Below, piece after piece: positions 6,144-39,184 of a stretch of DNA of 39,723 bases (position 1 is the stretch's first letter; every line of letters begins with the position of its first letter). Both the position numbers and the translations under genes were made by a program. The DNA is from a virus (lineage: Duplodnaviria; Caudoviricetes), in the IMG/VR virus record IMGVR_UViG_3300048577_000433, positions 1 to 39,723 of that record. One strand, given 5' to 3'. The notes under the pieces are model-generated. The model was not told the origin of the DNA, did not search any database, and worked only from the letters and a program-made list of their open reading frames with translations.

Positions 6144-6243
6144 GGAAACTCCTTGGTGGTGTTTTGGGCTTGGATGCCGGCCGGGCGGAGGAGCGAGTTC
6201 CCGGCCGGTTCCAAACCTCGGCGGCGGGGCCGAGGTGATGGAG

Positions 6244-6387
6244 CTATTTCTTCACGTGCTGCTCCACGCAGCGGTCGCACACGGCGACGGATCGCAGGTC
6301 GTCCGCCGGATTCGGGTTCTTGATGCTGGTCAGATGGTCCGCTTCGGCTTTGCAGATGTAGCAACGCAGGGGATTGGTCGGGCTCAT
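6244..6387 (-). CDS. Small zinc-finger protein (47 aa, below the ORF-track cutoff)
   Basis: Hand translation MSPTNPLRCYICKAEADHLTSIKNPNPADDLRSVAVCDRCVEQHVKK; GGAG RBS directly after the upstream stop. Confidence 0.65.
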   Translation of the reverse strand: MSPTNPLRCYICKAEADHLTSIKNPNPADDLRSVAVCDRCVEQHVKK

Positions 6388-6399
6388 GGTGACGATCTC

Positions 6400-7116
6400 C
6401 TAGTCGAGGGTCATGAAACAGGGCTGATGCCGGCCCGGGGCGGCCTGGCTGGCGAAGGCCATTCCGGCGATGGACGTACCGGCCCGGCTCCCCGTCGCCA
6501 TGGCGGTAAGGCTGCCGGCGGTCGGCCCGGGCACGAGCATGGAACCGATGCCGGCCGTGCCGGCGGCCAGACAGCAGGCCACGCCGCCGGTCTGGGCGAA
6601 GAAGTAGTGCCCGGGGGGCACGTCACAGGTGGCGATGCCGGCCGGCAGATTGTTTTCGGTGGCCGAGGCGGCCACGCCGCACCAGGGCGAGGGCACGAGC
6701 GACACCACGGAATCGGCGGTCAGCGCCGCCCGAACGGGCTCGGCCAGGGTGAGGACGGTCGTGCCGCCGGCCGGGCAGGCAGTGTTGGAGAGGATGCGGT
6801 ATTGCCGGCCGCGGCCTTCGCTGGCGACGATCTGGAGGTAGCCATCCTCGTAAGCGTTTTCAGCCACGGGCGCGTCCCCGACGACCAGGCTCACGATACG
6901 GTCACCTACGGCCGCCGGTGTGGCGGGCCGGTTGGTATGGGCGGGATTCGCCACCGGGGCCATGGCCAGGGAGCCGGCCGGGATGTCAGCGCCGGCTTTG
7001 GCGTATCGGAACTTGCGGCCGTCGGCGGTGATGCGCAACGCGCCGATGGCTTCACGCTTGGCTTGCGAGGTTTCGCCGACGTCCTGGGTAAAGGAAAGCT
7101 TCATGGGTTGGGCCAT
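6400..7116 (-). CDS. Early-operon paralog of the capsid-adjacent (decoration/cement-like) protein
   Basis: Collinear with 36117-36836: LRIxADGRKFRxAKAGA, SATExNLPxGI, AQTxG, MLVPGxTAGSLxAM; AAGGAGG RBS. Confidence 0.9.
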   Translation of the reverse strand: MAQPMKLSFTQDVGETSQAKREAIGALRITADGRKFRYAKAGADIPAGSLAMAPVANPAHTNRPATPAAVGDRIVSLVVGDAPVAENAYEDGYLQIVASEGRGRQYRILSNTACPAGGTTVLTLAEPVRAALTADSVVSLVPSPWCGVAASATENNLPAGIATCDVPPGHYFFAQTGGVACCLAAGTAGIGSMLVPGPTAGSLTAMATGSRAGTSIAGMAFASQAAPGRHQPCFMTLD

Positions 7117-7139
7117 GGTGTTCCTCCTTCGGAGGGGGG

Positions 7140-8078
7140 TTAGGAGAGGTTGCTGTGGCAGGCGTGGGCGCGGCGATTCGAGCAGATCAGGTTGCCGTGC
7201 CACAGGATCTTCATGGCGCGTCCGGCCGGGCCGCCCAGCTCAACCCACGGCTGGCGGGCGAAGAAGCCGTTTTGGTTGATGGCAAAGCCCAAGTAGTTGG
7301 TGTTGACGGCAAAGAGGTTGCCGGCCGGGCAGTAGTCGTCAGGGGCGAGGATCATGCCTTCGTAGACAAGATGGGCGAACCCGGCCTGGGCCACGTTGTC
7401 GTCGGTGACAAAGCGCCCCTGCGCCATGAGGATGGCGGCTACTTTTTGGTAAAGCGTCGAGGTGGTCACGGCGACGTTGGGCCGCACCGCTCGCGTTTTC
7501 CCCGCGTGATCGGTGAGCTTGAACGTTGCAGCGTCACGGGTTTCGTTCAGGACATGCAGGCTGATGGCCTCATGGTCATCCAACGTGATGCCCTTCCAGG
7601 GCTTGGAGCCGTCAGCGGCAATCAGGTCATTTTCGGCGATGCCGCCGTAGGGCTTGTCAGGGTCGGGGCTGGTCAGCGCCCGCAGGCCGGTCAGGGTCGG
7701 GGCCTCGTCGCCGGCGGCGGAATAGAGCGTGGCGGCCAGCCACCCGGCGCAGGTACGTTGGGCGGTCTCGATCTTTTGGGTCACGTACTGGACCTGGGCA
7801 TAGTCGCCACTGTCCTTATGGTCTGATTCATAGACCGTGGCATTGCCGTAGGCGTGTTTCCAGTTGAACGAGGCGGCCAGCCCCTTGGGGGCCATGGGGT
7901 CATCCAGGGGCACGCGGATCGTCTCGCCGCCGGCCGGCCGCTCGAACAGGCCGGCCTGGCGGTTCATGAGCAGGTCCAGCAGGAACGAGTTGCGGAAGTA
8001 GATGTCCACGGCCCGGCCACCGGCGGCGGCGAAGTAGTCGTTGGTGATGGATTCGATCTCACCGAGAGAAAGGGACAT
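7140..8078 (-). CDS. Early-operon paralog of the major capsid protein (internal 16-aa deletion)
   Basis: Collinear with 35107-36075: SFLLDLLMN, AASFNWKHAYGNATVY, PYGGIAE, DDYCPAG, MKILWHGNLICSNR; AAGGAGG RBS; alternative in-frame start at 8303. Confidence 0.92.
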   Translation of the reverse strand: MSLSLGEIESITNDYFAAAGGRAVDIYFRNSFLLDLLMNRQAGLFERPAGGETIRVPLDDPMAPKGLAASFNWKHAYGNATVYESDHKDSGDYAQVQYVTQKIETAQRTCAGWLAATLYSAAGDEAPTLTGLRALTSPDPDKPYGGIAENDLIAADGSKPWKGITLDDHEAISLHVLNETRDAATFKLTDHAGKTRAVRPNVAVTTSTLYQKVAAILMAQGRFVTDDNVAQAGFAHLVYEGMILAPDDYCPAGNLFAVNTNYLGFAINQNGFFARQPWVELGGPAGRAMKILWHGNLICSNRRAHACHSNLS

Positions 8079-8295
8079 GTGGTCCTCCTTGGGGCTGCTG
8101 GCCCGAGTCGCGGCGATGCGCCGGGCTTCGAGGTATTCCAGGCGAGTTTCGATAAGGGCGTCGAGGCGGGCCTCCAGATCGGCGAAGATCGATTCCAGGC
8201 CGGCGATACATGGGTCCGTCTCGGCGTCCTGGCTGTTTCCTGGGGTGACCACGGGCCCGGCATGATCGGGCCCGTGGATTGAGGTTGTGTCAGGG

Positions 8296-9567
8296 TTATT
8301 CATTCGGCTGGCCGTCCGTCGCCGGGCACAGGCCCTTCTGGTTGCAGGCGGCGCAGTCCGTGGACAGGCGCACCATGGCTCCGTTGTCCGGGCACTCGAA
8401 GGCCTCTTCTTGGGCCTGGCCCATGGGCTGGGTGTCTTCGAGGGGAGCGGTTTCAGTCGGCTGGCCCTGGGCGGGCGGGGCTTGCTCGGGGTCGGGGACA
8501 ACGCCGGCAGCGGCCAGGGCGTCGGCCGCCATCTGCTTGACCTGTTCGCACTGGACGTAGCTCCAGTCCTTCGAATAGACGCCAAAGTCTTTCTCAATAC
8601 CGGCAACATCGAGTCCGGCTTCTTGAGCCGCCCTTACGGCTGCTTCACGCGACGCTGTTGTGGCCCTGGGCTTCTTGCTTTGTTCGCCTCCCAAGGGCGC
8701 GCCCTTATCAGCCGGAACGTTGGTCAGAGGGGGGAAGACCTCATCGGGATCAGCCAAGCCGTCTTTGATCTCCGTGGCCAAGGAGCGGACGTTCATGTAT
8801 TCGTCCCTGGTCCACTCGCTGGCGGGCTTACCGATCTTGGCGAATACCCGTTCTTCCGTGACGCCATACTTGGCGAGAAAGGACAGCACTTTGCCCTTCG
8901 CGTAGACGAACCGGGTCGGGTCCTCGAGGCCTTTCGCTTCGGAAGCCTTGGCGACCTCAATGGCTTTTGTTTCAAGCCACTTCGGGACGCCGGCGAAGAT
9001 GACGTTCCGCAGGGCCTTGGACTGGCCGACCTGAAAGCCCATGTCGTCTGCACGCTCCGCGTCGTAGTTTCCACCGACGGGATTGTGCTTCTTTCTGAAG
9101 AGACGAGACGTGGTGAAGCCGGTTTCCAGATCGATCCATGATGCGGTGAAGACGTCGATACCGTCCCTGGTTTCCAATTCGACATCGACCACGCAGTTGC
9201 CCCAGTTCCTGGCGATGCAGTAGGCCAAACCGATGGAACCGCCTTCGACGACAGAATTGCGGTTTGTCTTTCTGTTTTTGACCTCCCACCGGTAATAGAA
9301 GTCCTCGCCGGCGCAGGCGGCTTCCTCCAAGACCTTTTCGACAATCGCGGCAAGGTTCCTGGGCTTCTGAACCTTGATTGCGGTTGCATACTTGGTCTGC
9401 ATTCGCTGCATGGGTTCTGTGGCGGAGAGGTGGATGGACTGTGGCGATTGCTCCTGGCCGAATTTGGCCGCCGGAGAATCGTTTCCTTTCACAGCGGGCA
9501 GATATTCGGGAGGAAGCCCGGTTATGACCCGCATATCCTCCGGCGTCATGTACTGGCCATTGTTCAT
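8296..9567 (-). CDS. Putative single-strand annealing/recombination protein
   Basis: Directly downstream of a PD-(D/E)XK exonuclease; GGSIGLAYCIARNWGN...WIDLETG...GQSKALRNVIF core; flexible C-terminus ending in a Cys cluster. Family is inferred from context. Confidence 0.55.
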   Translation of the reverse strand: MNNGQYMTPEDMRVITGLPPEYLPAVKGNDSPAAKFGQEQSPQSIHLSATEPMQRMQTKYATAIKVQKPRNLAAIVEKVLEEAACAGEDFYYRWEVKNRKTNRNSVVEGGSIGLAYCIARNWGNCVVDVELETRDGIDVFTASWIDLETGFTTSRLFRKKHNPVGGNYDAERADDMGFQVGQSKALRNVIFAGVPKWLETKAIEVAKASEAKGLEDPTRFVYAKGKVLSFLAKYGVTEERVFAKIGKPASEWTRDEYMNVRSLATEIKDGLADPDEVFPPLTNVPADKGAPLGGEQSKKPRATTASREAAVRAAQEAGLDVAGIEKDFGVYSKDWSYVQCEQVKQMAADALAAAGVVPDPEQAPPAQGQPTETAPLEDTQPMGQAQEEAFECPDNGAMVRLSTDCAACNQKGLCPATDGQPNE

Positions 9568-9569
9568 GG

Positions 9570-10391
9570 CTATTCGCTCCTTTTGGGGGGATTCTTGCGA
9601 TGTGCGGGGATATGGGGACACGTCCACCAGTATCCGCAGTATTTCGGGGAACACTTCCAATGACCCGGCTCGGCAGGTGGAAAGATTCCAGCCTCTATCT
9701 GGCGCAGCATGATTTTCACTCTGGACACAAGAGCCTGGAAGTCAGCCGGTTCACGTGACGTTTCGAGGCGATGATGGGCCGGTTCCTTGGTCCGGGTGAA
9801 AATCTCGAAGGAGAGTTTTGACGGGTAACGGCCTCTGTTGTGGGCAATCACTTCGTTGTACAGGGTGGCCTGAACATCCGTATCGGCTTGGCCTTGCGGC
9901 CATTTGCGCGCTGAGTTTTTGAGGTCCAGCCACCATTCGCCCTGGCCGTTCCTGGACAAGACATCCAGCGTGATACGAAAAGGCACCGGTAATTCGGGGT
10001 GATCCATGAAAAGCGTGGTTTCTACGAGAATGGGCCGGACCTGGGGAGCAAGGTCGCTTCGATACAAGCCGGCCAGTGCAATCGTGGTGTCCAGCCCTTC
10101 GCTGATCTGCTTCCGGGCACTCGGAGCTTCATCCAGGGGGATAAAAACCCCTTCGTCACGGACGGCTCGGACATAAGCGTCTCTTGCGGCATCCTGAATG
10201 GTGTCCATGGGTACGTCCTGACCGGAGAGGAGTTTGGCTTTGTGATTGACCTCGGCTCCACGATGGAGTCCCGTGCCAACTCTCCCAGCTATCCCCGCAG
10301 GAATAACCTCCCCTTCGATCCATCTTCGGCGCACCGTTTCCCCACACATGGCCCAGGATTTGATGAGGGTTTGATTGATGTAGTTGATCAA
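9570..10391 (-). CDS. PD-(D/E)XK RecB-family exonuclease
   Basis: VGTGLH, LVE, ITLDVL, WLDLKN, QATLY and terminal WKCSPKYCGYWWTCP. Confidence 0.88.
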   Translation of the reverse strand: MINYINQTLIKSWAMCGETVRRRWIEGEVIPAGIAGRVGTGLHRGAEVNHKAKLLSGQDVPMDTIQDAARDAYVRAVRDEGVFIPLDEAPSARKQISEGLDTTIALAGLYRSDLAPQVRPILVETTLFMDHPELPVPFRITLDVLSRNGQGEWWLDLKNSARKWPQGQADTDVQATLYNEVIAHNRGRYPSKLSFEIFTRTKEPAHHRLETSREPADFQALVSRVKIMLRQIEAGIFPPAEPGHWKCSPKYCGYWWTCPHIPAHRKNPPKRSE

Positions 10392-10864
10392 GTCCCGCCC
10401 CTCCTCTCCCCCTGGCTGGCCTTCTTAAGCGCCAGCTCGGAGATGCCCGCGATCTCGTGGGCCAGGGTCCGGCCGCCGGGCAAGCGCGCCCCCTCTGTGA
10501 TGGCGGCGCAGATGGCGTGGATGCGGCCCATGGCCTCGTGGAGATAGTGGACGCGCCGCGGCAGTTCCCGGTCCTCGGTGGAGGCGTCCGCTTCGAGGGT
10601 CTGCCGGATGTCGGCCAGGATGCGAGAGGCGTCCTCGCCCTGGGCAGTGGCCACTTCCATCCCGAGCGGTCGCCACTCCATCCGGTAATCCACGTTCTGG
10701 GCGGGCAGCATGCCGTGATCCCGCTGAAAGTCGTCGCGGAAGGCCCGAAGGAACTTTTCGGCATCGGACTCATCGGGAAACGTCGCCACTTGCTGAAAAA
10801 CGCCGCAAGCGATGTGCTCGGAGAACACCAACGCCTGATCCGGGGTGATTTGCGACGGTTCCAT
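10388..10864 (-). CDS. Hypothetical protein
   Basis: GGAGG RBS; stop overlaps the next start. Confidence 0.6.
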   Translation of the reverse strand: MEPSQITPDQALVFSEHIACGVFQQVATFPDESDAEKFLRAFRDDFQRDHGMLPAQNVDYRMEWRPLGMEVATAQGEDASRILADIRQTLEADASTEDRELPRRVHYLHEAMGRIHAICAAITEGARLPGGRTLAHEIAGISELALKKASQGERRGGT

Positions 10865-10866
10865 GG

Positions 10867-11037
10867 CTACCTCCCCATCTGCCAGACCAGCAGCCGGCCG
10901 GAGTTGATGATTTGTTGGCCCTCGATTGAGGGGTTGCAGGGCATCGCCAGAGCGATCAACGTTGCGATGATGCAAGCCACGCAGACGATGCCGCCAATGA
11001 CATTCAGCACGTGATACCGGTCGCCCTGGCTGCGCAT
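10867..11037 (-). CDS. Small single-TM protein (56 aa, below the ORF-track cutoff)
   Basis: Hand translation MRSQGDRYHVLNVIGGIVCVACIIATLIALAMPCNPSIEGQQIINSGRLLVWQMGR; GGGAGG RBS; fills the gap exactly. Confidence 0.6.
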   Translation of the reverse strand: MRSQGDRYHVLNVIGGIVCVACIIATLIALAMPCNPSIEGQQIINSGRLLVWQMGR

Positions 11038-11053
11038 GACGCCTCCCTGCCGG

Positions 11054-11515
11054 TTACGCCGCCCGCCCGGAGAGGGTCGGAAGCGGCGGCTTCTCGGCGA
11101 ACTCGAGGTCGTCCATCGTGTAGACGGGCCTGGACGAATCCACCGTCACGCGCGCGCCGGCCGGCACAACCCAGAGGTCGCGGCCGGGACCAAGCATGGC
11201 CCGGGCCGGGGCCAAGAGTTCGTCGAGCGTCGCGGGAGGGGCCGGGGGCAGCAAGGCAAGGGTAACGGGCGCGTTGGCCAGCTCCCTGGTGGCGTCCTCA
11301 ATGAGGTACGGCAGGCCCTCGCCGCTGGTGATCCACGTGGGGTTGGCCCCGCGCTGCTGGTAAAGCGCGACCAGCCAGCTATCCGGGATGGAGCCGCGCC
11401 GCTTGGCGTCGGAAATGCTCGACTGTCGGATGTTCAGGAGGTTCGCCAGCTCGACCTGTGTCCGGGTCCCGGCGATGGCGTGTATGCGGGCCATGGCGGC
11501 CTCGAAGTCGTTCAT
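11054..11515 (-). CDS. Phage CI-type HTH regulator (no peptidase domain)
   Basis: TQVELANLLNIRQSSISDAKRRGSIPDSWL...NPTWITSGEG matches the Phage_CI_repr HTH pattern; alternative start at 11608. Confidence 0.85.
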   Translation of the reverse strand: MNDFEAAMARIHAIAGTRTQVELANLLNIRQSSISDAKRRGSIPDSWLVALYQQRGANPTWITSGEGLPYLIEDATRELANAPVTLALLPPAPPATLDELLAPARAMLGPGRDLWVVPAGARVTVDSSRPVYTMDDLEFAEKPPLPTLSGRAA

Positions 11516-11822
11516 GGGGACTCCTTGGCCGCCCTGCCCTCCTACGTGTGTCTCCCTGGCGGGTACCAAGGGCTTCGGAGGGACAGGGCGGCGGCTTGGG
11601 GTGTTCATCCCTGGCAGCGTTCGCCGGCCTTTTCGGCGGGCCGCCAGCAGCGCCACGGTGGGGCGCCGGGCCTCTGTTGCGACAAGATCAGGATGAGCAA
11701 CGCGCTCCTCCTTGGATCGGGCCGGTTGATCCGGTCCGGAGATGGCAAATGGGCCGCCCCGCGTTCGTGGGGGAGGTCGGAGCGGCCCGGGCTAGGGGTT
11801 GGGAGGGTCGCATGGGGCGATT

Positions 11823-11898
11823 TGGTGGAGATGGCCGGGATCGAACCGGCGGCCTCCTGCGTGCAAGGCAGGCGCTCTCCCAGCTGAGCTACACCCCC
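11823..11898 (-). tRNA. tRNA-Ala(UGC)
   Basis: 76-nt cloverleaf GGGGGTGTAGCTCAGCTGGGAGAGCGCCTGCCTTGCACGCAGGAGGCCGCCGGTTCGATCCCGGCCATCTCCACCA; TGC anticodon, G3:U70, encoded CCA. Confidence 0.97.
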
Positions 11899-11910
11899 GA
11901 AAGATGATGG

Positions 11911-12108
11911 CTACGCCGCGCTGCCGCCGCCGCCCTGGGGCGAGAGGCCGAAGTAGGCCGGGCCGTAACCGGCCAGCCCGCCATTACCGAAACACTCGAT
12001 CATTTCGTCATCGCCGCCGTGGTCGTGGAATTCGGCAAGGGCTGCCTCCTTCGCGGCGGATAGCGTCAGGCTGTCCCGCAACGTCGGTGACGCATTGTTG
12101 CTCTCCAT
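11911..12108 (-). CDS. Hypothetical protein, first well-supported ORF of the leftward operon
   Basis: 65 aa with strong AAGGAGGAGG RBS. Confidence 0.6.
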   Translation of the reverse strand: MESNNASPTLRDSLTLSAAKEAALAEFHDHGGDDEMIECFGNGGLAGYGPAYFGLSPQGGGGSAA

Positions 12109-12136
12109 GGCCTCCTCCTTGTGTTGTTCGGGGGTG

Positions 12137-12275
12137 TGGCGGACGGCTGGCCGGGCTTGATGCCGGCTCCTGGCGCACTACCAGCCCTCTACCGGGCGTC
12201 TCGGTCATGGCGTTTCCGCAGCATCGGCCAGGGCTACTCCGTCCCGCGTGTCCATCCACGCCGCAGCCGCCCGCC
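12137..12275 (-). ncRNA. Putative tRNA-like structured RNA
   Basis: Terminal stem GGCGGGCGGCTG/CAGCCGTCCGCC, D-like arm GCGTG-GATGGA-CACGC, T-like arm GCCGG-CATCAAGC-CCGGC, 3' GCCA, long central insert. Confidence 0.5.
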
Positions 12276-12634
12276 TCACCCCCGATCCCTGGTCAGCCGT
12301 CGCGAGTCTCACGCCGGCAATTCCAAGGGCGTCTTTCAACGCGGGGTTTCGGTTTATTGCCAGCCCGCACGGATGTTTCACCGCCGTCGCTCTGGCCGCC
12401 CGCTCTGCCCGGGCATGTGGTTGGTGTTCGTTGCTCCTGCCGCTTTCCCCTTCCCCTTGCCTGCCGCGTCTGCCTGCGCCGTCTGGAGCGTCCTGCCGGG
12501 CTCTTGTCCTGGCTGGCCCTGCATCCTGGTCGAGGCTTTCGCTTTCAGCTCGGTTCCGGCCGCCTCCCGGTCGCCTACCGGCCCCGGCCAGCTTGGCGCG
12601 GGGCTTTGGGCTCGTGAGTGGCGTCGTTGAGGAG

Positions 12635-12738: not shown

Positions 12739-14136
12739 TTATTTCCAGTTCTGTTTGGCGTAGTCCGCCAGGATGTATTCCAGGATTGTGAGATTTGAAC
12801 TGAGGCTCATGGCCCCCGGAGAAGCTAGCGCCCCAATGATGGTAAAATACTGGCTTATGGACAAATTTTGTCCGGCGTAGAGGGTGCCGAGCCAGGTCCC
12901 GTACTGGCTCCACTGCATAGATGTTTCGGCTCCCATGTAGATGAGTTTGGCGGCGGAGCGGACCTTGGCCTTGGTGGCAGCGGGCAGGGCCTCGATCTGC
13001 TCCATGGTGAGGTAGCTGCCGCCGGTGTCGGCGGTCTTGATGTGGACGTAGGTGTATTGGCCGGTGGTGATGGACCCGGCGGACAGGATGGTCAGCGGCT
13101 GCCCAGAGGACACATCGAGATAGAGATCCATGTATTGCGAATACTGGATGCTCGTAAACACGTAGGTGCCGCTGGCCAGATAAGCGGTCCCGTGCTGGTT
13201 GGTTGTCCAGGCCTTGTAGGCCGTGCCGGCCGGGATTGGCTTGGCAGCGTTGGAGTTGGGCACGTTGTCCGTGGCGCCGCTGGTGATGGTCGGGGCGACT
13301 GGCGCGGTCGTGGCCGGACAGGTGACGGTGGGCATGGTGTAGGGCAGAGGCGTGCCGATGGAATCGTATTGCGCCCGGTTGATGGCCCCGCCGGCCTGGC
13401 CGGTTTTGGCTATGGACGCGTATTGGTTCATGGTGATCGAGCCGGTGGCGTAAGCGTTCGACTTGGCCTTGGCGTACTGGCCCACGGTGATGTTGCCGTT
13501 GGCCGACACGTCGCCCGCCACCTCGGCGTACTGGTTGAGCATGACGTTGCCTGAGGCGGCGCAGACATAGCCGCCGACCGTGGCGTATTGGCCGAGGTCG
13601 GCCGAGGTGTCGGATATCACGTTGCCGCTTACGGCGGCGTACTGGTTGAGCAGCAGGTTTTTGCCGGCCACCGAGCCGTTGACCACGGCATTTTGGGGCA
13701 GGGCCAGGTTGCCATCGGTGTTGATGACGTAGTCGCCGCCGGACCATTCAGACGACTTTGGCGTGATCGAGGCTGCGGCCAGGCTGTTGGCCTCCAGCCC
13801 TGTGCCATCGTTGACGGTACCGACGGATCGCACGGGGTAGACTCCACCGCTGGGAGCCTGGGCCGTAAGCGTGAATTTGGCTCCCCCGGGCATGGTGTAG
13901 GTCGCGCCCGCGCCGGCCCGGATCGTTTCCAGGGCTGCGCTGTCCAGGGTCTTGGCGTACTGGATGCCGGACCAAGCGGCGTAGTATGCGGCGTGGCTCT
14001 GGCCGGCGGTGACGACGCCAAGCCCGGCAGTAGAGGAAAGGCGGCTTATGCCGGCGGCGAGGGCGCTGACGACGATGATGGCAATGACAACGACAAGCAG
14101 GGTTCCGCCGTGGGCGGGCGAGCGGGATGACGACAT
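12739..14136 (-). CDS. PilX-like minor pilin/adhesin with beta-helix repeats
   Basis: Class III-like signal HGG|TLLVVVIAIIVVSALAAG lacking Glu5; VRSVGTV strand; ~17-19-aa repeats with a recurring QY motif; AAGGAGG RBS. Confidence 0.7.
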   Translation of the reverse strand: MSSSRSPAHGGTLLVVVIAIIVVSALAAGISRLSSTAGLGVVTAGQSHAAYYAAWSGIQYAKTLDSAALETIRAGAGATYTMPGGAKFTLTAQAPSGGVYPVRSVGTVNDGTGLEANSLAAASITPKSSEWSGGDYVINTDGNLALPQNAVVNGSVAGKNLLLNQYAAVSGNVISDTSADLGQYATVGGYVCAASGNVMLNQYAEVAGDVSANGNITVGQYAKAKSNAYATGSITMNQYASIAKTGQAGGAINRAQYDSIGTPLPYTMPTVTCPATTAPVAPTITSGATDNVPNSNAAKPIPAGTAYKAWTTNQHGTAYLASGTYVFTSIQYSQYMDLYLDVSSGQPLTILSAGSITTGQYTYVHIKTADTGGSYLTMEQIEALPAATKAKVRSAAKLIYMGAETSMQWSQYGTWLGTLYAGQNLSISQYFTIIGALASPGAMSLSSNLTILEYILADYAKQNWK

Positions 14137-14156
14137 AGGCCCTCCTTATATGGAGG

Positions 14157-14187
14157 ACCATAGATATTTATATATCTATTTTGTCAA
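14157..14187 (-). promoter_or_regulatory. Putative promoter/operator of the PilX-like gene
   Basis: TTGACA (14187-14182), 19 bp, TATGGT (14162-14157); palindrome ATAGATAT-N4-ATATCTAT at 14160-14179. Confidence 0.45.
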
Positions 14188-14222
14188 TAAGAATATGCAT
14201 CAAAATAAAGCACTCCTTAATT

Positions 14223-14924
14223 TCACTCACCCCTTACGACGCAAGATCGCGCACGAGAGTAAATCACGCAACAAAAAGTGTAAAACGAAGGATTGTTGAG
14301 CTTCCTCTCAGAATATATATCTTCAATTTTATCATAACATGCCCGTCGTGCAGCATTCAGCATGTCTCGATGCTTTTGCTTGGCCAGCTTCAATTCATCA
14401 TCGTCGAAGAAAAGACACCCATCTTTATCAATACGGTCACAAATCTTTGTTGCAAATGAACGATAAGCCAATATATCACTATATTCTGAAGAAAGCCAAC
14501 CATACTTCCTGCTGCCAATTTCTAAAACAGTTTCTATAGAATCACAGTCGTGATACACATGAGAAATAGCAGTTTTTAATGCTCCAAAATCTTCATCTGT
14601 CTGATGCAAAAGATCGTTGATTGACACACCAACCGAGTCTACTTTTGACAATGTCACATCAAAAAATTTATTAAGTCTTAAACATAGGTTTCGGCGGTCT
14701 TCTATTTCGTTCTTGTTGTGGTAGTAATAAACGCCGAATAAAATACCAATAACAGAAATAAAAAAAGCTACAACAGGAGCAACTGTAGAATAGTAGTCTT
14801 TAAGGTAGGTCATCTGGCAACTATTCGCAATATCGACAAAGGAAATAGCCGGAAGAAAAGGTATTGCTATTAAATACAAACAGAATGAAAAAGCCAAAAC
14901 TCCCAAAAGAACAAAGCTCTTCAT
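14223..14924 (-). CDS. AT-rich membrane protein (2 N-terminal TM helices + helical domain)
   Basis: Hydrophobic segments at about residues 3-26 and 47-67; 6 nt from the upstream gene. Confidence 0.75.
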   Translation of the reverse strand: MKSFVLLGVLAFSFCLYLIAIPFLPAISFVDIANSCQMTYLKDYYSTVAPVVAFFISVIGILFGVYYYHNKNEIEDRRNLCLRLNKFFDVTLSKVDSVGVSINDLLHQTDEDFGALKTAISHVYHDCDSIETVLEIGSRKYGWLSSEYSDILAYRSFATKICDRIDKDGCLFFDDDELKLAKQKHRDMLNAARRACYDKIEDIYSERKLNNPSFYTFCCVIYSRARSCVVRGE

Positions 14925-14930
14925 AAAGCT

Positions 14931-15266
14931 CTATTTTTTCCAATACCCATCGCGCAATTCTATAAAGATAGTTTCAAGCTTTACTGGACTTATATTAACC
15001 ATCCTGATCTTTTTAAGAATCTTTTCCGGCGTCGAAAATTTTGCAAAGAATGCAAAAGCTTCATTTGCGAAAGAAGGTCCCAGCTTTTCTATGCCAGAAA
15101 AATCGAGTTCAATCTCTGGGTCGTCATTCTTCCATTTATCTTCATTTTCCAATTCACTAAGATACAACGACCGAAACTCAAGCGCATTAAACTTACCATC
15201 CCCTTGGTGCTCGTCACGATTGACAAGCCGGTTTGAGAATTGTGTCGCGATATTTATAGTTTTCAT
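14931..15266 (-). CDS. STAS-like (DUF4325-type) protein
   Basis: IELDFSGIEKLGPSFANEAF motif; 111 aa. Confidence 0.85.
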   Translation of the reverse strand: MKTINIATQFSNRLVNRDEHQGDGKFNALEFRSLYLSELENEDKWKNDDPEIELDFSGIEKLGPSFANEAFAFFAKFSTPEKILKKIRMVNISPVKLETIFIELRDGYWKK

Positions 15267-16440
15267 CTTGGCTACGCCTTGTTTTTATCGTGAGATGATA
15301 CATTGTACCGGCAAAGACTTTGCCACCATTACTTCCAAACGCCTCTTCTTTCCCATGCTCATCCAGTATATAATAGCCCTTACACGACAAAATCGCAAGC
15401 CGTATACCTAGTGCTCTGCAGTTTTCTTTTATTCTTTGTAGGCCTTTTCCTCGACGCTGCCCTTGTTCATAATATTCTACAATCCCGAACCATTCCTTTT
15501 TCTTCTCTGGAGCAGTAATCGCACCACTAATATTTCTTTCCATTGCCTTCTTAATAAACATCCCATCATGGTCAGGCGAAGAAGCTAGCTCTTTTAGTAT
15601 CATATTCCTTTGAGGACCGGTCACCAGACTATTTCTAATACCAATTCCATTGTCTGCAATGCATACAGAAATAATTTCGTGGGTTTCATGAAATTGTGCA
15701 AGCATCCACCATCCAGAATCTCGTCTGTAAATGCCATGCTCTGTTACGTTGTTAAATATTTCTGTAGAGATTCTATCGTAAAATACTTCAATTTCATCTG
15801 GGCTCAAATCAGAATACCTGACCAGCAGAGCCTTTAATTCATCTTCACGTGCGGATGTTCCAAATCCGTCATGTTCTCGTTTTATTTTAACAATTTCACT
15901 TGGTGAATAGTGATAGAGATCGTCTACCTCTTTTATTTTCACATAATCATAGAAACCACAGTGATACAAATAAGAATTGACAGCGCCGCTTTCAGAAGGG
16001 AATTGTGCAATCTGCTGTGGTTGTCCTCTGTGTCCGCTAAGCTCTGTCCATTGCTTCAAAGCACACAGCAGTGTTACTGCAGAAGGCCAAACACGAGTGC
16101 ATAGCCCAAAATCAATTGTCATCATACGCGCTCTTGAGTTAAGCAGCTCCATCGCGTAGACAAGAAAATTTTGAACTAATTGTGGTTCTTCAATCCCGAA
16201 TTCGCCGTCTATCTTTATTACTTCTGATTTCTTTTTATAGTTTGTCGGTCTGTAATATTCGGAGACAAAATGAGATCGATACTTTTGCTGCTCTGAAAAT
16301 ATAGATAACGGGATGGTCTTTTTGTATTTCTTTTTCCTTTTGCTGTTTCTATCTTGACCTGAATCGCGCTCAAACCTTTTTCTATTTAAAACAAACTCTC
16401 TTTTCTTGGACTCAGAAATAACGCTATGTTTCTTTTTCAT
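15214..16440 (-). CDS. GHKL/HATPase_c ATP-binding protein with N-terminal STAS-like region
   Basis: N box STEIFNNVTEHG, G1 ISVCIADNGIGI, G2 RRGKGL, terminal FAGTMY; N-terminal IDFGLCTRVWPSAVTLL...YLYHCGFY. Confidence 0.82.
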   Translation of the reverse strand: MKKKHSVISESKKREFVLNRKRFERDSGQDRNSKRKKKYKKTIPLSIFSEQQKYRSHFVSEYYRPTNYKKKSEVIKIDGEFGIEEPQLVQNFLVYAMELLNSRARMMTIDFGLCTRVWPSAVTLLCALKQWTELSGHRGQPQQIAQFPSESGAVNSYLYHCGFYDYVKIKEVDDLYHYSPSEIVKIKREHDGFGTSAREDELKALLVRYSDLSPDEIEVFYDRISTEIFNNVTEHGIYRRDSGWWMLAQFHETHEIISVCIADNGIGIRNSLVTGPQRNMILKELASSPDHDGMFIKKAMERNISGAITAPEKKKEWFGIVEYYEQGQRRGKGLQRIKENCRALGIRLAILSCKGYYILDEHGKEEAFGSNGGKVFAGTMYHLTIKTRRSQDENYKYRDTILKPACQS

Positions 16441-16502
16441 TAATTTTCCTTGGTCAAATCAAATATTGCATCTTGTGAAGCAATTGAGTCAACTTGGTGT
16501 AT

Positions 16503-16856
16503 CTACTTTCTCTTAGGAAGACGATGCCCATACTTCAAAAGAAGTTTATCATCCTCATCAGATTCCATTTCAGCGTATGTCCGCCGTTTCTCTTGGAACA
16601 TAATCGCTGCGTAAGCAAAGTACAAAATCGTTATCGCAAGCCAATGCAAAATCAGAGAGACAAAATCAATCGAAATCCCAAAAAACGAATTTCCAGGATG
16701 TTCTGTTGCAGGCGGCGCAAAAATAAAGCCATACCCTGCTGGTTTGTTGACAATCCCCGCGCCAGGGATGTTGGCAACATATTTCCATGGAGGACAGATC
16801 GTCAGCAAGGCCATAAGCAAAATGTAGACGATGACCACGGTCCGCTTTGATGGCAT
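16503..16856 (-). CDS. Small two-TM membrane protein downstream of the repressor
   Basis: Two hydrophobic helices; starts 8 nt after the repressor stop (alternative GTG at 16862). Confidence 0.7.
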   Translation of the reverse strand: MPSKRTVVIVYILLMALLTICPPWKYVANIPGAGIVNKPAGYGFIFAPPATEHPGNSFFGISIDFVSLILHWLAITILYFAYAAIMFQEKRRTYAEMESDEDDKLLLKYGHRLPKRK

Positions 16857-16864
16857 GTCCACCT

Positions 16865-17362
16865 CTATGTTCTAGAAAATCTCTTTAATTCATTCCTCAA
16901 TTCACGGTTTTCTTCACGCAAGGTACGATTATCGTCGCGTAGTTCCTGACATTCACGGCGACATGCTTCAAGTTCATTTTTTAATTCTACATAATGAGAC
17001 TCTAATGGTTGATTTCCATACTTTGACAAAGGTGATTTAACATCGGCGCGCAGATAAGAAGAACTATGTCCATTCCCTGACACATCGACTGCTGGCAACT
17101 TTGCGTCTCCAGTAGCTATCAGAGATTCCTCTTCCAAGCACTTGTTTGCAAACAAAAGAAACGTCTCCAGGCTCATCCCCAAATTTTGAGCCAGACGTTT
17201 TATGGATTTGATCCCGAGCCCTTTGGCGTGTTTGGAATCAAGAGTATAGTCCAGCATCCTCGGAGAGTTAAGGCCAGCCTGGGCCGCCAGTTGGTCCTTG
17301 TCCCTGCCGTCTCGCATCAGGGCACGAAGCGCTGCCGCAGTGGCTGCTTTGATTTCGCTCAT
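16865..17362 (-). CDS. Immunity repressor (XRE HTH + C-terminal coiled coil)
   Basis: DKDQLAAQAGLNSPRML...IKRLAQNLGMSLETFL; divergent from the cro-like gene; no S24 peptidase motifs; alternative GTG start at 17380. Confidence 0.72.
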   Translation of the reverse strand: MSEIKAATAAALRALMRDGRDKDQLAAQAGLNSPRMLDYTLDSKHAKGLGIKSIKRLAQNLGMSLETFLLFANKCLEEESLIATGDAKLPAVDVSGNGHSSSYLRADVKSPLSKYGNQPLESHYVELKNELEACRRECQELRDDNRTLREENRELRNELKRFSRT

Positions 17363-17373
17363 AGGAATTTTAT

Positions 17374-17441
17374 GAACCACCAGTTCTATTAGGTCAAAAA
17401 GTTCTCGGCCCGTTGACGTGACGAACCTTTGGTTCTAAACT
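17374..17441 (+). promoter_or_regulatory. Rightward early promoter PR with operators
   Basis: TTGACG (17413-17418), 17 bp, TAAACT (17436-17441); GAAC-N5-GTTC at 17374-17386 and 17423-17435, degenerate copy at 17392-17404. Confidence 0.82.
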
Positions 17442-20914: not shown

Positions 20915-20996
20915 GCATCCTGGACGCCCACGGTCGCGAGGCCGCTCCTCTGACCGCATATGAACGGCGATGGGCCGAGACCATGGAGACACTGTC

Positions 20997-27513: not shown

Positions 27514-28089
27514 ATGAGTGGGAAAAGCGGCGGTCTGAACAAAAAGCAGCAGCGTTTCGTTGAGGAGTACATTGTGGACCTCAACGCCACGCAAGCCGCT
27601 ATCCGCGCCGGTTACAGCGCCAAGACCGCCTATCGGATCGGTCACGACCTCCTTCAGAAAACGTCAGTTTCCGACGCGATACAGGCGGCCATGGCCGAGC
27701 GGTCCGAGCGGACCCAAATCACGGCCGACGAGGTTCTCAAGGAGCTGGCCCGCATTGCGTTTTCCGACATTCGCAAAGCGGCCACGTTCGGGCCTGCTGG
27801 CGTCACGATTCGGTCTTCCGCCGAGCTTGACGACGCCACGGCCGCGGCCATCTCCGAGGTCAGCGAGACCACTACGCAGTTCGGGGGCTCCCGCAAGGTC
27901 AAACTGCACGACAAGGTGAAGGCCCTGGAGCTGGCCGGCCGCCACCTGGGCCTGTTCGAGAAGGACAAGGGCCCGGGCGCGGCCGTCCTGAACTTCATCA
28001 GCATGTGCCCCGAGCCGGCCCCGCTGCCGGATGAGTTCAAGCCACCGGACCCGGATGATGCCCAGGACTCCCAGGAGGGCCAGGGATGA
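27514..28089 (+). CDS. terS: Terminase small subunit
   Basis: LNKKQQRFVEEYIVDLNATQAAIRAGYS...DKVKALELAGRHLGLF. Confidence 0.95.
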   Translation: MSGKSGGLNKKQQRFVEEYIVDLNATQAAIRAGYSAKTAYRIGHDLLQKTSVSDAIQAAMAERSERTQITADEVLKELARIAFSDIRKAATFGPAGVTIRSSAELDDATAAAISEVSETTTQFGGSRKVKLHDKVKALELAGRHLGLFEKDKGPGAAVLNFISMCPEPAPLPDEFKPPDPDDAQDSQEGQG

Positions 28090-29465
28090 ATGTCCAGGCC
28101 GAATACCGTCCCTTGCCGAAGCAAGCGGCTCTGCACGCCAGCCCGGCCAATGAGGTCCTGTACGGCGGAGCCGCCGGCCCGGGCAAAAGCCATGCCCTGC
28201 GCATGGAGGGTCTGCACTGGTGCCTGCGCATCCCAGGCCTGCGGGCGTACCTGTTCCGCCGGACCTTCCCCGAGCTGGAACAGAATCACATCCTGCCCTC
28301 CCAGGCCCATTTCCCCATGGGCGTCGGCACATTCAAGGCCCAGGCCAAAAGGTGGGACTTCGTCAATGGTTCGCGCCTCTTCTTCGCCTCGTGCCAGTAC
28401 GAACAGGACGTGTTTCGCTATCAGGGCGCGGAGATCCATCTGCTCCTCATCGATGAGCTGACCACGTTCACAGAGTTCCAATACGACTACCTGCGCGGCC
28501 GCCTGCGCTGCGCCTTGGTCATTCCCGAGCAGTACCGCCATAAAATCCCGGGCATCTCCTGCGCGTCAAACCCTGGCGGGGTGGGTCATGCGTTTGCCAA
28601 GCGGCGCTGGGTGGATTTTGTCCGGCCGATGGAGCTCAAGCGTGCCGCCCAGGATGAAGGCGGCATGTTGCGCACCTACATTCCCGGCCTGCTCCAGGAC
28701 AACCCGATCCTGATGCAGCGTGACCCTGGCTATATGGCGCGACTGGATGCCCTCCCGGAGCCGTACCGCTCGGCCTACAAGGACGGTCGCTGGGACATCT
28801 TCATCGGCCAAGCCTTCGAGTTCAACCGCTCGCGCCATGTCGTCAAGCCGATGCCGATCCCGGAGCACGCGCCCCTCTACATGACGTTCGACTGGGGCTA
28901 CGGCGCGCCGTTCTCCTTGGGCTGGTGGTGGGAGGATGCCGACGGCCGGCTTTATCGTTTCGGCGAGTGGTACGGATGGAACGGCACGCCCAACCAGGGC
29001 CTGCGGCTCGTGGATTCCGAGATTGCCCGGGGCATCCTGCAGCGGGAGGAAAGGTGGGGGCTGAAGGGGCGTCCCATTGTCCGTCTTGCCGGGCCGGACT
29101 GCTTCGCCAAGAAGCCCGACTATCGCGGGGGCGGCCAGGGACCGAGCACGGCCGAGCAGTTCGCCGAAGGCGGGGTGGACAAGCTGACGCCTGGCGATCC
29201 GTCGCGCGTGGCCAAGATTCGTCGTTTTCGGGAGCGGCTGAAGCTGCCGGCTGACAACAGCGCGCCCATGCTCCAAGTCTACGAGTCCTGCGAGCAGTTC
29301 ATCCGAACCATCCCCTTGCTCCAGATCGATCCCCTGAACGTCGAAGACATCGACACCAAGGGCGAGGACCACATCTACGACGAAGCCTGTCACATCTGCA
29401 TGTTGCGCGCTCCGGCGGCTGACGGCCTGACCGCCGGGACAAATTGGGGAAGGAGGTCATCATGA
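28086..29465 (+). CDS. terL: Terminase large subunit
   Basis: Walker A YGGAAGPGKS, Walker B LLLIDE, ASNPGG, nuclease TFDWG and EDHIYDE. Confidence 0.95.
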   Translation: MNVQAEYRPLPKQAALHASPANEVLYGGAAGPGKSHALRMEGLHWCLRIPGLRAYLFRRTFPELEQNHILPSQAHFPMGVGTFKAQAKRWDFVNGSRLFFASCQYEQDVFRYQGAEIHLLLIDELTTFTEFQYDYLRGRLRCALVIPEQYRHKIPGISCASNPGGVGHAFAKRRWVDFVRPMELKRAAQDEGGMLRTYIPGLLQDNPILMQRDPGYMARLDALPEPYRSAYKDGRWDIFIGQAFEFNRSRHVVKPMPIPEHAPLYMTFDWGYGAPFSLGWWWEDADGRLYRFGEWYGWNGTPNQGLRLVDSEIARGILQREERWGLKGRPIVRLAGPDCFAKKPDYRGGGQGPSTAEQFAEGGVDKLTPGDPSRVAKIRRFRERLKLPADNSAPMLQVYESCEQFIRTIPLLQIDPLNVEDIDTKGEDHIYDEACHICMLRAPAADGLTAGTNWGRRSS

Positions 29466-34170: not shown

Positions 34171-35094
34171 ATGCCTGACCTGATTTCCACCGTGCCCGGA
34201 GACATCGGCAGCGGCGGGCCGGCCATGCCGGCGGCGGCTCCCGATCCGCAACCGGGCCCGGAGTCCGGGACTCCCACTCCCGGCCCAGGGCCGGCCACGC
34301 CGCCGCCCAGCGCGCCCGACAACGGCGATCCCGGCAAATCCGGGGCCCCGGCCCTGGCCTCCGACACGCCGCCCGATCCCAAGCCCGCCGCCGCCCCGAC
34401 GCCGGCCGCGCCGCCGGCTCCCGTTGAATCGCCCGAAGTGCTGGGTCTGCGCGCGCAGGTGGAACAGCTGACCCAACTGGTCGGCCAACTCATGCCGTCC
34501 AAAGCAGAGACGCCTGCGGCTCCGGCCCGGGACTTCGCGGCGGAAAAGGCTGCTCTGGACGCCGACTTCAAGGCCGAAAAGCTCGACACCACCACCTACA
34601 TGGCGAAGGTCACGGCCCTGGCTACTGAGCAGGCCAAGGCCGATGCCCTGGCCGTGGTCAGCCAGGGGAACCACAACACCGTTCAGGCGGTACAGGCCGA
34701 GCTGAAAAAGGCCCAGGACAACGCGTCCTGGAAGGCCCTGTGCGAGGCCCATCCCGGGCTGCAGGGCTTCGAGCGGACGCCCGAGTTCGCCGCGCTCAAG
34801 GCTGCGAACCCTCTTCATGATCCCCTTTCGGCCTTCCTGACGCACCAGCTCACCGAGACCAAAGCCGCCACCGAAAAGGCCGTGGCCGACGCGGTGAAGG
34901 CCAAGGAAAAGGAGATGGTCGAGGCAATCCGGGCCAAAGGCCATGCGGCCGTGCTCGGAAACCCCGGCGGCCAGGCCCCCAAGGCCGGCGTCGATTTCGA
35001 CGCCATGCTCAAGGAACCGGATAAATATGGCGGACTGGCCGCCGTGCAAGCGGCCAAGCTCAAGCACCAGCGGGCCAGTGTCGGCGCGCAATAA
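34171..35094 (+). CDS. Scaffolding protein
   Basis: Pro/Ala-rich N-terminus, helical remainder, immediately upstream of the capsid gene. Confidence 0.78.
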   Translation: MPDLISTVPGDIGSGGPAMPAAAPDPQPGPESGTPTPGPGPATPPPSAPDNGDPGKSGAPALASDTPPDPKPAAAPTPAAPPAPVESPEVLGLRAQVEQLTQLVGQLMPSKAETPAAPARDFAAEKAALDADFKAEKLDTTTYMAKVTALATEQAKADALAVVSQGNHNTVQAVQAELKKAQDNASWKALCEAHPGLQGFERTPEFAALKAANPLHDPLSAFLTHQLTETKAATEKAVADAVKAKEKEMVEAIRAKGHAAVLGNPGGQAPKAGVDFDAMLKEPDKYGGLAAVQAAKLKHQRASVGAQ

Positions 35095-35106: not shown

Positions 35107-36075
35107 ATGCTGACCTTTGAAGAACTCGAAAGCATCACCAGCGACTATTTTGCTGCCGCTGACGGCCAGGCCGTGGACATTTATTGGCGCGAATCCTTCC
35201 TTCTCGACCTGCTCATGAATAAAAAACGGGGGCTGTTCGAACGTCCTTCCGGCGGCCTTCACATCCGCATTCCCCTCAACTATTCCGGTGCCGAAGGCGG
35301 CTTTTTCTCCCGCTCCACCCCTCTGTCCAGCGACGACCGCGAGTCCATCAACGCCGCCTCGTTCAACTGGAAGCACGCTTACGGCAACGCCACCGTCTAC
35401 CTGACCGACGAGCTGGTCAGCAACGGCGATATCGCCTCCGTCCAATTCGTCAACCAGCGGATCGAAAACGCCCAGAAAACCTGCTCCGGCTGGCTGGCGA
35501 AGACCCTGTATGCCGACGGCTCCGACATCGCGCCGACCCTGACCGGCCTTGGCTCCTTGGTCAGCACCGATACCAGCCGGCCCTACGGCGGCATCGCCGA
35601 GAAAGACATGGTGGCCGAAGACGGTTCGACTCCCTGGCACGCCGTTTATGACGCCACGGCCGAAGCCATCAGCCTGGAGGTTCTGCAGACCATGCGTTCC
35701 TCGGCAAAGCTGGGCGACGGGGCCACCGGCAAGCCCAACGTGTCCGTCACCACCGAGGCGCTCTACAACAAGGTTTCCCGCATCCTCCAGATCCAGCAGC
35801 GGTTCGTGAAGGATGAAGACACGGCCAAAGCCGGATTCACCCACCTCGTCTACGAAGGCATGACCCTGGCCGCCGACGACTACTGCCCCGCCGGTCATTG
35901 CTACGCCTTGAACACCAACTACCTGGGCTTCGCCATCCACCAGGATGGCTTTTTCAAGCGTATCCCTTGGGCCGATCTGATCGGTCCCGTCGGCCGTACC
36001 ATGAAGATTCTCTGGCACGGCAACCTTATCTGCTCCAACCGCAAGGCCCACGCCTGCCACGCGAACCTGAACTAA
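35107..36075 (+). CDS. Major capsid protein
   Basis: 322 aa after the scaffold; GGLHIRIPL...AASFNWKHAYG, AGFTHLVYEG...DDYCP, WHGNLICSNR typical of HK97-fold capsids; AAGGAG RBS. Confidence 0.9.
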   Translation: MLTFEELESITSDYFAAADGQAVDIYWRESFLLDLLMNKKRGLFERPSGGLHIRIPLNYSGAEGGFFSRSTPLSSDDRESINAASFNWKHAYGNATVYLTDELVSNGDIASVQFVNQRIENAQKTCSGWLAKTLYADGSDIAPTLTGLGSLVSTDTSRPYGGIAEKDMVAEDGSTPWHAVYDATAEAISLEVLQTMRSSAKLGDGATGKPNVSVTTEALYNKVSRILQIQQRFVKDEDTAKAGFTHLVYEGMTLAADDYCPAGHCYALNTNYLGFAIHQDGFFKRIPWADLIGPVGRTMKILWHGNLICSNRKAHACHANLN

Positions 36076-36116: not shown

Positions 36117-36836
36117 ATGTCCACGCCCATCAAAAACATGTTCAGCCACGGCCTGTTCGAGGCCAAGGCCACCACGCCGGAAGCCCTCGGCACCCTGCGC
36201 ATCCTGGCCGATGGCCGAAAGTTCCGCCTGGCCAAGGCCGGCGCCGCCGCGCTCTCCCCGGGCAAGCTGGCCGTAGCCCCGGACGCCGTGGCCAACCACA
36301 TCAACCTGACCGGCTCCGCGATCAAGGTCGGCGAAAGCCGAGTGCCCGTGACCGTCGGTGCCACGGCCGTCACGGACGGTCAGTACGTGGGCGGTTTCCT
36401 GCAGATCAACGCCGGGACCGGAGCCGGCATGCAGTACAAAATCCAGTCGCACGGCACCTGCGCCGCCTCGGGCGTCCTGGTGGTGGTCCTGGAGGAACCC
36501 ATCCGCGTGGCACTGGACGCCACTTCCAAGCTGTCCCTGATTCCCTGCCCCTGGAACGACACCGTGGAATCGGCCACGGAGGAAAACCTTCCCGTGGGCA
36601 TCACTCTGTGCCCGGTTCCGGCCGGGTACTTCTACTGGGCCCAGACCTCGGGCCAAGCCGTCGCCCTGATCGCCGGCACCCCGGCCAAGGGCACCATGCT
36701 CGTTCCCGGAGCCACGGCCGGCAGCCTCGCCGCCATGAACGCTACCCTGGACATCGATCAGCCCGTGGTCGCCACCATGGGGCACACCGCCGGTGTGGAC
36801 GGCCAGTACAAGCCGGTCCTGCTGGCCATCGAATAA
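36117..36836 (+). CDS. Capsid decoration/cement-like protein
   Basis: Directly after the capsid gene; DGRKFRLAKAG and YFYWAQTSG; Gly/Ala/Thr-rich beta composition. Confidence 0.68.
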   Translation: MSTPIKNMFSHGLFEAKATTPEALGTLRILADGRKFRLAKAGAAALSPGKLAVAPDAVANHINLTGSAIKVGESRVPVTVGATAVTDGQYVGGFLQINAGTGAGMQYKIQSHGTCAASGVLVVVLEEPIRVALDATSKLSLIPCPWNDTVESATEENLPVGITLCPVPAGYFYWAQTSGQAVALIAGTPAKGTMLVPGATAGSLAAMNATLDIDQPVVATMGHTAGVDGQYKPVLLAIE

Positions 36837-38725: not shown

Positions 38726-39184
38726 ATGGCGCTTCGTCTTTCCACCGGCCTTCGCAATATGCTGCTTGGTACGTCCAGTTTCAAAACGATCATGCAAAAC
38801 GGCGTGATCCGCATCTTCCCCGGCGTGCAGCCGGCCACGGCTGACGACGGCGAAGGGGCCACGCCTCTGCTCGAAATAACCGTCTCTTCCGGAGCGTTCA
38901 CCCCGGGCACGGCCACGAACGGGCTGAACTTCGCCGCCCCGGCTTCCGGAGCCTGCGCCAAAGCGGCCGGCGAAGTCTGGTCCGGCGCGGCCACGAGTTC
39001 GGGCACGGCCGGCTGGTTCCGGTTCTACGCCAACGATCGCACCACCGGGGCCGACACGACTCACGCCCGCTTCGACGGCTCGGTGTCCACTTCGGGTGCC
39101 CAGCTCAACATGAGCTCCACGGCCATCACCGCCGGCGCCACCACCACCATCGACAGCTTCGTGGTTACCATGCCGGCTTCCTAG
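38726..39184 (+). CDS. Virion/tail structural protein
   Basis: MALRLSTGLRNMLL...GTAGWFRF...RFDGSV; AGGAGG RBS. Confidence 0.7.
   Translation: MALRLSTGLRNMLLGTSSFKTIMQNGVIRIFPGVQPATADDGEGATPLLEITVSSGAFTPGTATNGLNFAAPASGACAKAAGEVWSGAATSSGTAGWFRFYANDRTTGADTTHARFDGSVSTSGAQLNMSSTAITAGATTTIDSFVVTMPAS

Follow-up and report, generated by a model that had tools for sequence, protein, structure and literature searches.

We detected, in the leftward and likely early operon of a tailed virus, a cassette of capsid and decoration genes that trees and alignments show to have been captured from a head-gene cluster resident in Solidesulfovibrio chromosomes, and whose capsid has been remodelled. We suggest that the cassette may act early and in a dominant-negative way on the procapsids of this host element, as a chain-terminator or a scaffold sink, a reading to which we give a probability of about 0.45. 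The window, the whole stretch of DNA analysed (39,723 nucleotides), is a 39.7-kb virus record that has, besides an integrase and the leftward operon, genes for lysis, terminase, portal and a podovirus-type head (Table 1).

Table 1. Features of the cassette, its flanks and the related late genes, in window positions
Feature	Position	Strand	Basis or remark
Captured, remodelled HK97-fold major capsid gene (predicted)	7140..8078	-	Alignment, tree, profile, host ortholog model
Captured capsid decoration gene, whole; predicted beta-tulip fold	6400..7116	-	Fold, tree; 78-79% identical to S. magneticus-group host copies
N-terminal fragment of host-element scaffold	8079..8303	-	tblastn, scaffold alignment; in frame with capsid gene
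Shine-Dalgarno of capsid gene	8083..8090	-	Host-cluster inheritance; permits an unfused 312-aa product
E-loop stump, ~10 residues instead of ~26	7875..7904	-	Also in contigs of runs X1 and X8
Hypervariable patch ahead of spine helix (host residues 99-107)	7809..7832	-	
A-domain helices and loop, remodelled and with 6 residues inserted (host residues 191-232)	7416..7559	-	
PD-(D/E)XK nuclease, leftward (likely early) operon	9570..10391	-	Pfam PF12705, E 2.7e-11
Upstream gene, phrog_3657; left flank of the insertion	8296..9570	-	Last codons overlap the cassette ATG
Small CxxC gene, bordering the insertion on the right	6244..6387	-	82% to the G215 gene
Late scaffold of the phage	34171..35094	+	Position; C-terminus resembles host scaffold
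Late major capsid protein of the phage, E-loop full	35107..36075	+	~72% identical to that of the host element
Late decoration protein of the phage	36117..36836	+	
Phage TerL	28086..29465	+	68-72% identical to the separate TerL of the host element
152-aa virion protein gene	38726..39184	+	91% nt identical to S. magneticus-group host copy

Both cassette frames, 7140-8078 and 6400-7116 on the minus strand, are open and follow the gene order of the late pair at 35107-36075 and 36117-36836 on the opposite strand, and an AAGGAGG Shine-Dalgarno precedes each start, as the first-pass annotation had described. Its estimates by eye of 60-65% identity for the capsids and 40-45% for their partners were close to the measured 197/305 aligned residues (64.6%) and 103/238 residues (43.3%); the pairs also match in blastn (65.6% over 1417 nt, E 2e-86). 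Early and late capsids both pass the NCBIfam capsid_maj_Podo cut-off (NF033394, 80 bits), the early copy with 136 bits. Window ORFs and profile searches gave no portal or terminase copy adjoining the cassette, again in agreement with that annotation. The recombination genes it placed upstream held for the PD-(D/E)XK nuclease, while a strand-annealing role for 8296-9570 is a weak lead (Atlas scores 0.77-0.81, bar 0.9).

The cassette partner is predicted to have a beta-tulip capsid decoration fold. Its model (pLDDT 92.5) matched 8qsy best (Z 12.1, rmsd 2.4, 114 aligned); capsid entries made up 9/10 of the top rows, with decoration or cement proteins as the best matches. Foldseek alone gave a best E of only 3e-3, and a sequence search of the PDB matched nothing. 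A consensus scan of the cassette strand from 6400 to 12600 detected no promoter-like site, being no richer than shuffles, and none of the public runs holding the cassette is listed as RNA; run X3 is probably DNA.

Elsewhere in the window we observed a tyrosine integrase with an in-frame C-terminal HNH_3 match (1-1422; residues 364-406), a separate HNH gene (1740-2312), a tRNA-Ala(TGC) (11823-11898), an Rfam DUF3800-VIII match barely over its cut-off (11528-11592; 42.6 vs 40.2 bits), and C5 and N6 DNA methyltransferase genes with a ROS/MucR regulator (19499-22336, 23841-24263). The accessory block at 12739-16862 encodes a 465-aa protein with a weak bactofilin match, a membrane protein, a STAS-like DUF4325 gene and a phrog_3364 gene, and is possibly a defence or moron cassette. 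The product of 16865-17380 has a C-terminal coiled coil and, from its position, is likely the immunity repressor; the G215 prophage has an S24 repressor at that place, and no S24 domain was matched in the candidate.

The first-pass annotation took the cassette for paralogs arising by duplication of the late genes, which the trees contradict. The nearest 323-residue relatives of the early capsid are 68-74% identical and lie in the head cluster of Solidesulfovibrio and related genomes; the cluster of its own late capsid reaches 61%. Compared with S. magneticus-group host copies, the early capsid is 75% and the early decoration protein 78-79% identical, and the 75-residue extension matches host scaffolds at 51-85% (tblastn). 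At the DNA level, cassette and host are 79% identical over 6400-8115 and 81-86% over about 8100-8228, two match blocks joined across a deletion that removes most of the scaffold gene. In the capsid protein tree (41 rows) the three early capsids group together (100/100) within the host clade, and so do the three early decoration proteins in theirs (25 rows, 100/100), which is the separate early clade that the annotation had proposed looking for. Constraining early and late genes to one clade was rejected for both trees (AU p 5.7e-7 for the capsid, 1e-110 for the decoration protein), and self-duplication of the late genes with it. On this sequence evidence the cassette genes are xenologs captured from the host head cluster. 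The protein trees place the donor by the S. magneticus group with support of 88/94 and 92/87, below the support threshold, and the DNA tree does not separate a host donor subgroup.

Prophage G215, whose TerL is 92% and late capsid 86% identical to those of the phage, has the upstream gene followed directly by the small CxxC gene, that is, an empty site. The insert thus amounts to 1.9 kb between two genes adjacent in G215, and no integrase, portal, terminase or replication genes were found within it. We rejected a nested second prophage or satellite, since the 1.9-kb insert has no mobility or packaging genes of its own, and here the annotation had judged correctly. The virion gene at 38726-39184 does not group with its G215 copy (AU p 6e-4) and, judged from its sequence, is a second gene exchange between phage and host element. 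Together with the G215 prophage it points to Solidesulfovibrio as the inferred host of the phage. The neighbours of 38726-39184 are only about 35% identical to those of the host as proteins.

The cassette is not unique to this genome. The ENA proteins P0121 (91%) and P0002 (87-88%) have the extension, deletion and insertion in common. P0002, an early-type decoration protein, a late capsid, a late decoration protein, TerL and the 152-aa protein all cite a 106,270-base contig, and from shared contig base counts we infer a phage context for P0002 and P0121. Contigs of X8 (6213-6550) and of X9 from the same study (6219-6435) span the downstream junction, two contigs of X1 from another study tile the upstream junction with a 24-base overlap, and an X8 contig (7372-7938) covers the E-loop stump in a variant form, at 91%. 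An assembly chimera was rejected on the ENA proteins P0002 and P0121 and the contigs of runs X1, X8 and X9; with the synonymous excess described below, these bear out the earlier view of selection rather than misassembly.

Copies were otherwise rare. The E-loop-junction pattern occurred 0 times in viral_contigs and in 0/25 genus genomes, and scans with the decoration and upstream genes detected no relatives in viral_contigs. Capsid matches were 0/80 at DUF5131 loci and 0/2 viral and 0/5 genome at g5277 loci; annotated phages gave no close match (best 33%), and the 50%-representative search gave no further E-loop-less family. The G215 genome carries the host element while its prophage is cassette-free, and g5277-bearing prophages in three more genomes also do without the cassette, which is thus dispensable.

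The first-pass annotation described the pair as intact, which is right for the frames and wrong for the capsid structure, since the capsid copy has a net 16-residue E-loop deletion and a 6-residue A-domain insertion. The early capsid is predicted to have the HK97 fold from its profile and from the model of the host ortholog, which has that fold and matches phage capsids (TM 0.66). We take the E-loop to occupy host residues 58-83, flanked by strands 53-57 and 84-88. We surveyed 289 aligned rows and removed 33 missing a flank; the span is at least 27 residues in 252 of the remaining 256, 11 in the three early copies, and 18 in P0261, a probable frameshifted fragment.

The core segments are 84-98% host-like and near-identical between early copies, the two most distant copies being identical over core stretches of 43/43 and 57/57 residues. 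Host residues 99-107 are 0/9 identical between early copies and 9/9 between two host species, and the A-domain region of host residues 191-232 is rewritten in the early copies. Sites invariant in 13 host rows were changed at 13/186 in the core versus 43/59 in the remodelled segments (27/41 with the E-loop left out), the remodelled segments having been picked after data inspection. At 67 core sites where host and late capsids differ, the copies are host-type at 52-54 and late-type at 5-6. In phage 80alpha, subunits contact each other chiefly through E-loops and A-domain helices; each E-loop is wrapped around the P-domain of its neighbour, and the scaffold attaches with its C-terminus at the N-arm helix (PMC5644958). 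Similar subunit contacts are described for phage YSD1 (PMC7385642). By analogy with these contact roles, the lesion map suggests that the variant has lost its donor contacts, while its acceptor surfaces (N-arm and P-domain core) stay host-like.

A full scaffold was correctly reported missing beside the pair, but the 75 in-frame codons upstream of the capsid (8079-8303), whose ATG at 8303 falls in the last codons of the gene before it, had been overlooked. The fragment keeps a coiled-coil-like part; the conserved C-terminal ~125 residues are gone and, in the scaffold alignment, the most conserved C-terminal motif with them. It had no tblastn match to the scaffold of the phage. Scaffold-capsid fusions are called as proteins of 387-388 aa (P0001, P0002, P0121). 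In one X1 contig (depth 3) the 30 letters preceding the capsid start are replaced by 172, which breaks the fusion frame and suggests that the fusion is optional.

With the two remodelled stretches excluded, dN/dS of the early capsid to its nearest hosts is 0.24-0.27, and that of the decoration gene is 0.30-0.36; neither is near 1, the value that the first-pass annotation had proposed checking against. Host-host capsid pairs gave 0.01-0.22 (eight pairs), and at like distance the early capsid-host value of 0.24 exceeds the host-host value of 0.09. Between the decoration gene and a phage-type X8 contig, 13 synonymous and 4 non-synonymous changes were counted among the 17/19 differences listed (pN/pS 0.125, p 7e-5). 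The capsid comparison with an X8 contig, whose extent and phage origin are not established, gave 5/7 listed changes synonymous and 2 non-synonymous. Differences among early capsids did not significantly avoid the family-conserved columns (8/155 vs 17/151, p 0.06; further pairs 15/155 vs 17/151, p 0.71, and 15/156 vs 22/151, p 0.22), which also fits relaxed constraint.

These numbers bear on the alternative that the capture was a recombination accident in which only the decoration gene is selected, for instance as extra cement on the phage head, with the capsid decaying in frame so as to avoid polarity. The strongest post-capture purifying signal lies in the decoration gene, the family-conserved columns are not significantly spared among early capsids, the deletions are in frame and the scaffold remnant is variable, all as decay would have it. 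However, the changes are strongly clustered, with the core stretches fully identical and the patch at 0/9; only 13/186 host-invariant core sites changed although dS is about 0.4, and most of the listed capsid changes (5/7) are synonymous. Early timing also ill suits a virion part, and the decoration protein shares 43% identity with that of the phage itself. We regard decay as rather unlikely.

The donor was characterized in the Solidesulfovibrio genomes. Its head cluster runs portal, Zn ribbon, scaffold, capsid, decoration, adaptor, closure and virion proteins, and is flanked by signalling and housekeeping genes in the one genome scanned. A single full-length, stop-free capsid, 83-100% identical, is present in 23/25 genomes of the genus, and the host-element capsid in 18/251 sampled family genomes. 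TerL is present in 24/25 genus genomes (in one as two pieces) at a locus separate from the head cluster, neighboured by terS and shared genes in the five loci compared. The host TerS has 191 aa and covers PF03592 positions 1-130 of 141, the whole Terminase_2 domain. A CI-like HTH-S24 repressor has a 70-100% ortholog in 23/25 genomes, at most 8 kb from terL in 14 and distant in two closed chromosomes (G044, G245). No integrase or replication match by the host element was found among 25 + 40 chosen ORFs of one genome, and with the phage lysozyme as query only 5/25 genomes gave a lysin.

By its genes, the host element looks like a domesticated split prophage, similar to gene transfer agents (GTAs). 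We do not class this element, known from genes alone, as a GTA, because its long TerS is unlike the short TerS of GTAs and a conserved lysin was not found. The split-locus, podovirus-type element is a candidate for a GTA-like system not described before; its loci in G001 are L025:6816-20969, L075:16600-20000 and L070:9881-16989, with orthologs in other genomes. In the wider capsid family, three genes are interrupted at or near the E-loop end by 0.85-2.3 kb (L010:8441-9296, L040:6136-6991, L041:804-3148), and in protein P0252 an in-frame insert shows, by eye, HNH-like motifs; these inserts are possibly introns or homing elements. At L018:10273-13292 one capsid gene is followed by four tandem decoration-protein homologs.

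The comparisons above establish the capture, the insertion site, the lesions, the persistence in diverged copies and the synonymous excess. Action against host procapsids, the reading that we prefer, could proceed as follows. The cassette would be transcribed early by operon read-through and translated by coupling at the overlapping start. A variant with host-type N-arm and P-domain would bind the host scaffold and accept the E-loop of a neighbour; lacking an E-loop of its own, and its A-domain helices being altered, it could not extend the lattice, and host procapsids would end early or be mis-shaped. The scaffold fragment and the extra decoration protein would titrate the remaining host head parts. 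The phage would gain by keeping a co-expressed related machine (capsid about 72%, TerL about 70%) from mixing parts with its own and from cutting and packing phage DNA. The lesions of E-loop and A-domain agree with the dominant-negative option of the first-pass annotation, but the likely target is the host element and not the rival phages it had in mind.

Several points weigh against poisoning of host procapsids. G215 and other prophages do without the cassette, and the early capsids show neither a significant sparing of family-conserved columns nor a dN/dS as low as that of host-host pairs at like distance. A whole decoration protein is no obvious poison and is loosely explained, and the capsid of the phage itself, a close relative, might be poisoned too. 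Co-induction with the host element by the SOS response is unsupported, as the repressor candidate has no S24 domain. More tentatively, we suggest that the Solidesulfovibrio machine harms related phages, by mixing of parts, by mis-packing DNA or by riding on the lysis that phages bring about, and that the cassette is a phage-encoded counter-defence against it.

The sequence type of the copy is informative for the remaining explanations. A soluble, non-assembling capsid could be a decoy that soaks up a capsid-sensing immune receptor before the late genes are expressed, as the first-pass annotation had proposed. Capsid sensors such as Avs7 and Dsr1 exist (PMC13581612), the lost lattice contacts would leave the copy monomeric, its position is early, and the hypervariable patches resemble an arms race. 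Yet the copy is host-type and not phage-late (52-54 vs 5-6 of 67), and a host sensor is expected to ignore the capsid type of its own host; binding usually activates such sensors, and the scaffold fragment and decoration gene are left unexplained. The decoy therefore stands but is disfavoured, and we consider it unlikely.

We find it improbable that the poison is directed at co-infecting or co-resident related phages instead of the host element. The same lesions would serve, and the genus has related phages with 70-86% identical capsids; but the sequence is still host-type, the closest related phage capsid is that of the phage itself, and expression in a lysogen is unlikely from a mid-operon position with no promoter-like site. 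Quite improbable as well is a minor subunit that sets the size or vertices of the phage capsid, or that redirects host-element heads for the phage. Ccm offers a precedent (PMC8569155), phage and host parts appear exchangeable (38726-39184), and the N-terminal extension resembles a delta domain, but Ccm retains its E-loop, G215 and L009 make heads without the cassette, and the cassette sits in the leftward operon. An encapsulin-like shell built by the pair is very improbable: encapsulins share the HK97 fold and the decoration gene is retained beside the capsid, but E-loop and A-domain contacts are lost, no cargo gene was recognised in the insert and the same patches diverge fast between copies. 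The geometry and shell options of the first-pass annotation are weak on this account, given the cassette-free related prophage and the lost lattice contacts.

Action against the host element, if real, would touch on several questions. The upkeep of costly domesticated phage machines by bacteria calls for an explanation, and the cassette suggests conflict between phages and GTA-like elements; if the counter-defence proposal is true, domesticated elements would be kept partly as anti-phage weapons. The genus-wide element provides a GTA candidate in sulfate reducers that are in culture and non-pathogenic, and a natural E-loop-less HK97 subunit would be useful for assembly studies. Among titles and abstract openings in a mostly non-subscription literature (cf. 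PMC9662315, PMC11841831, PMC5026251, PMC11434368), we found no description of a phage-borne crippled host GTA-like capsid or of the Solidesulfovibrio element.

Several features of the host element are GTA-like by comparison with the multi-locus RcGTA genome and Desulfovibrio Dd1: it is vertical, single-copy, split between loci, under purifying selection and placed among housekeeping genes. It differs in its TerS of 191 aa versus 125 aa in Dd1 (Table 1 of PMC6854486), its podovirus-type head and its CI-like S24 repressor, the likeness to Dd1 being one of gene features. Degenerate Desulfovibrio prophages may relate to GTAs (PMC6006170), and the host cluster may be among those of D. magneticus that the supplements of that paper give. 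Genes in common with domesticated head-tail clusters are also known from phages that carry GTA-like structural genes; there they are working late genes by shared descent (PMC11409702), whereas here an extra crippled copy lies beside a complete late set.

A second capsid-fold gene in one phage is known from the vertex paralog gp24 of T4, a late and essential self-paralog. Tai tail-assembly inhibitors are also reported to interfere with virion assembly, but they are host-side and target tails (PMC11364771). SaPI1 CpmB resembles the cassette as a scaffold-derived piece of one element acting on the procapsid of another; it keeps the capsid-binding C-terminal helix (PMC5644958), whereas the cassette fragment keeps the N-terminal part and has lost the conserved C-terminus. 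The closest likeness in kind is to SaPIbov5 Ccm, an HK97-fold capsid homolog of a mobile element thought to act on the assembly of another; Ccm, at 24% identity, still has its E-loop and makes working small heads (PMC8569155, PMC6893505). Here the direction is reversed, phage against host chromosomal element, and the copy is ~85% identical in its core, E-loop-less, and accompanied by a scaffold fragment and a decoration gene. It does not belong with Ccm-type redirectors, being encoded in a phage with head genes of its own and not in a PICI satellite. We suggest that the cassette is a variant of capsid-homolog interference whose target is possibly new.
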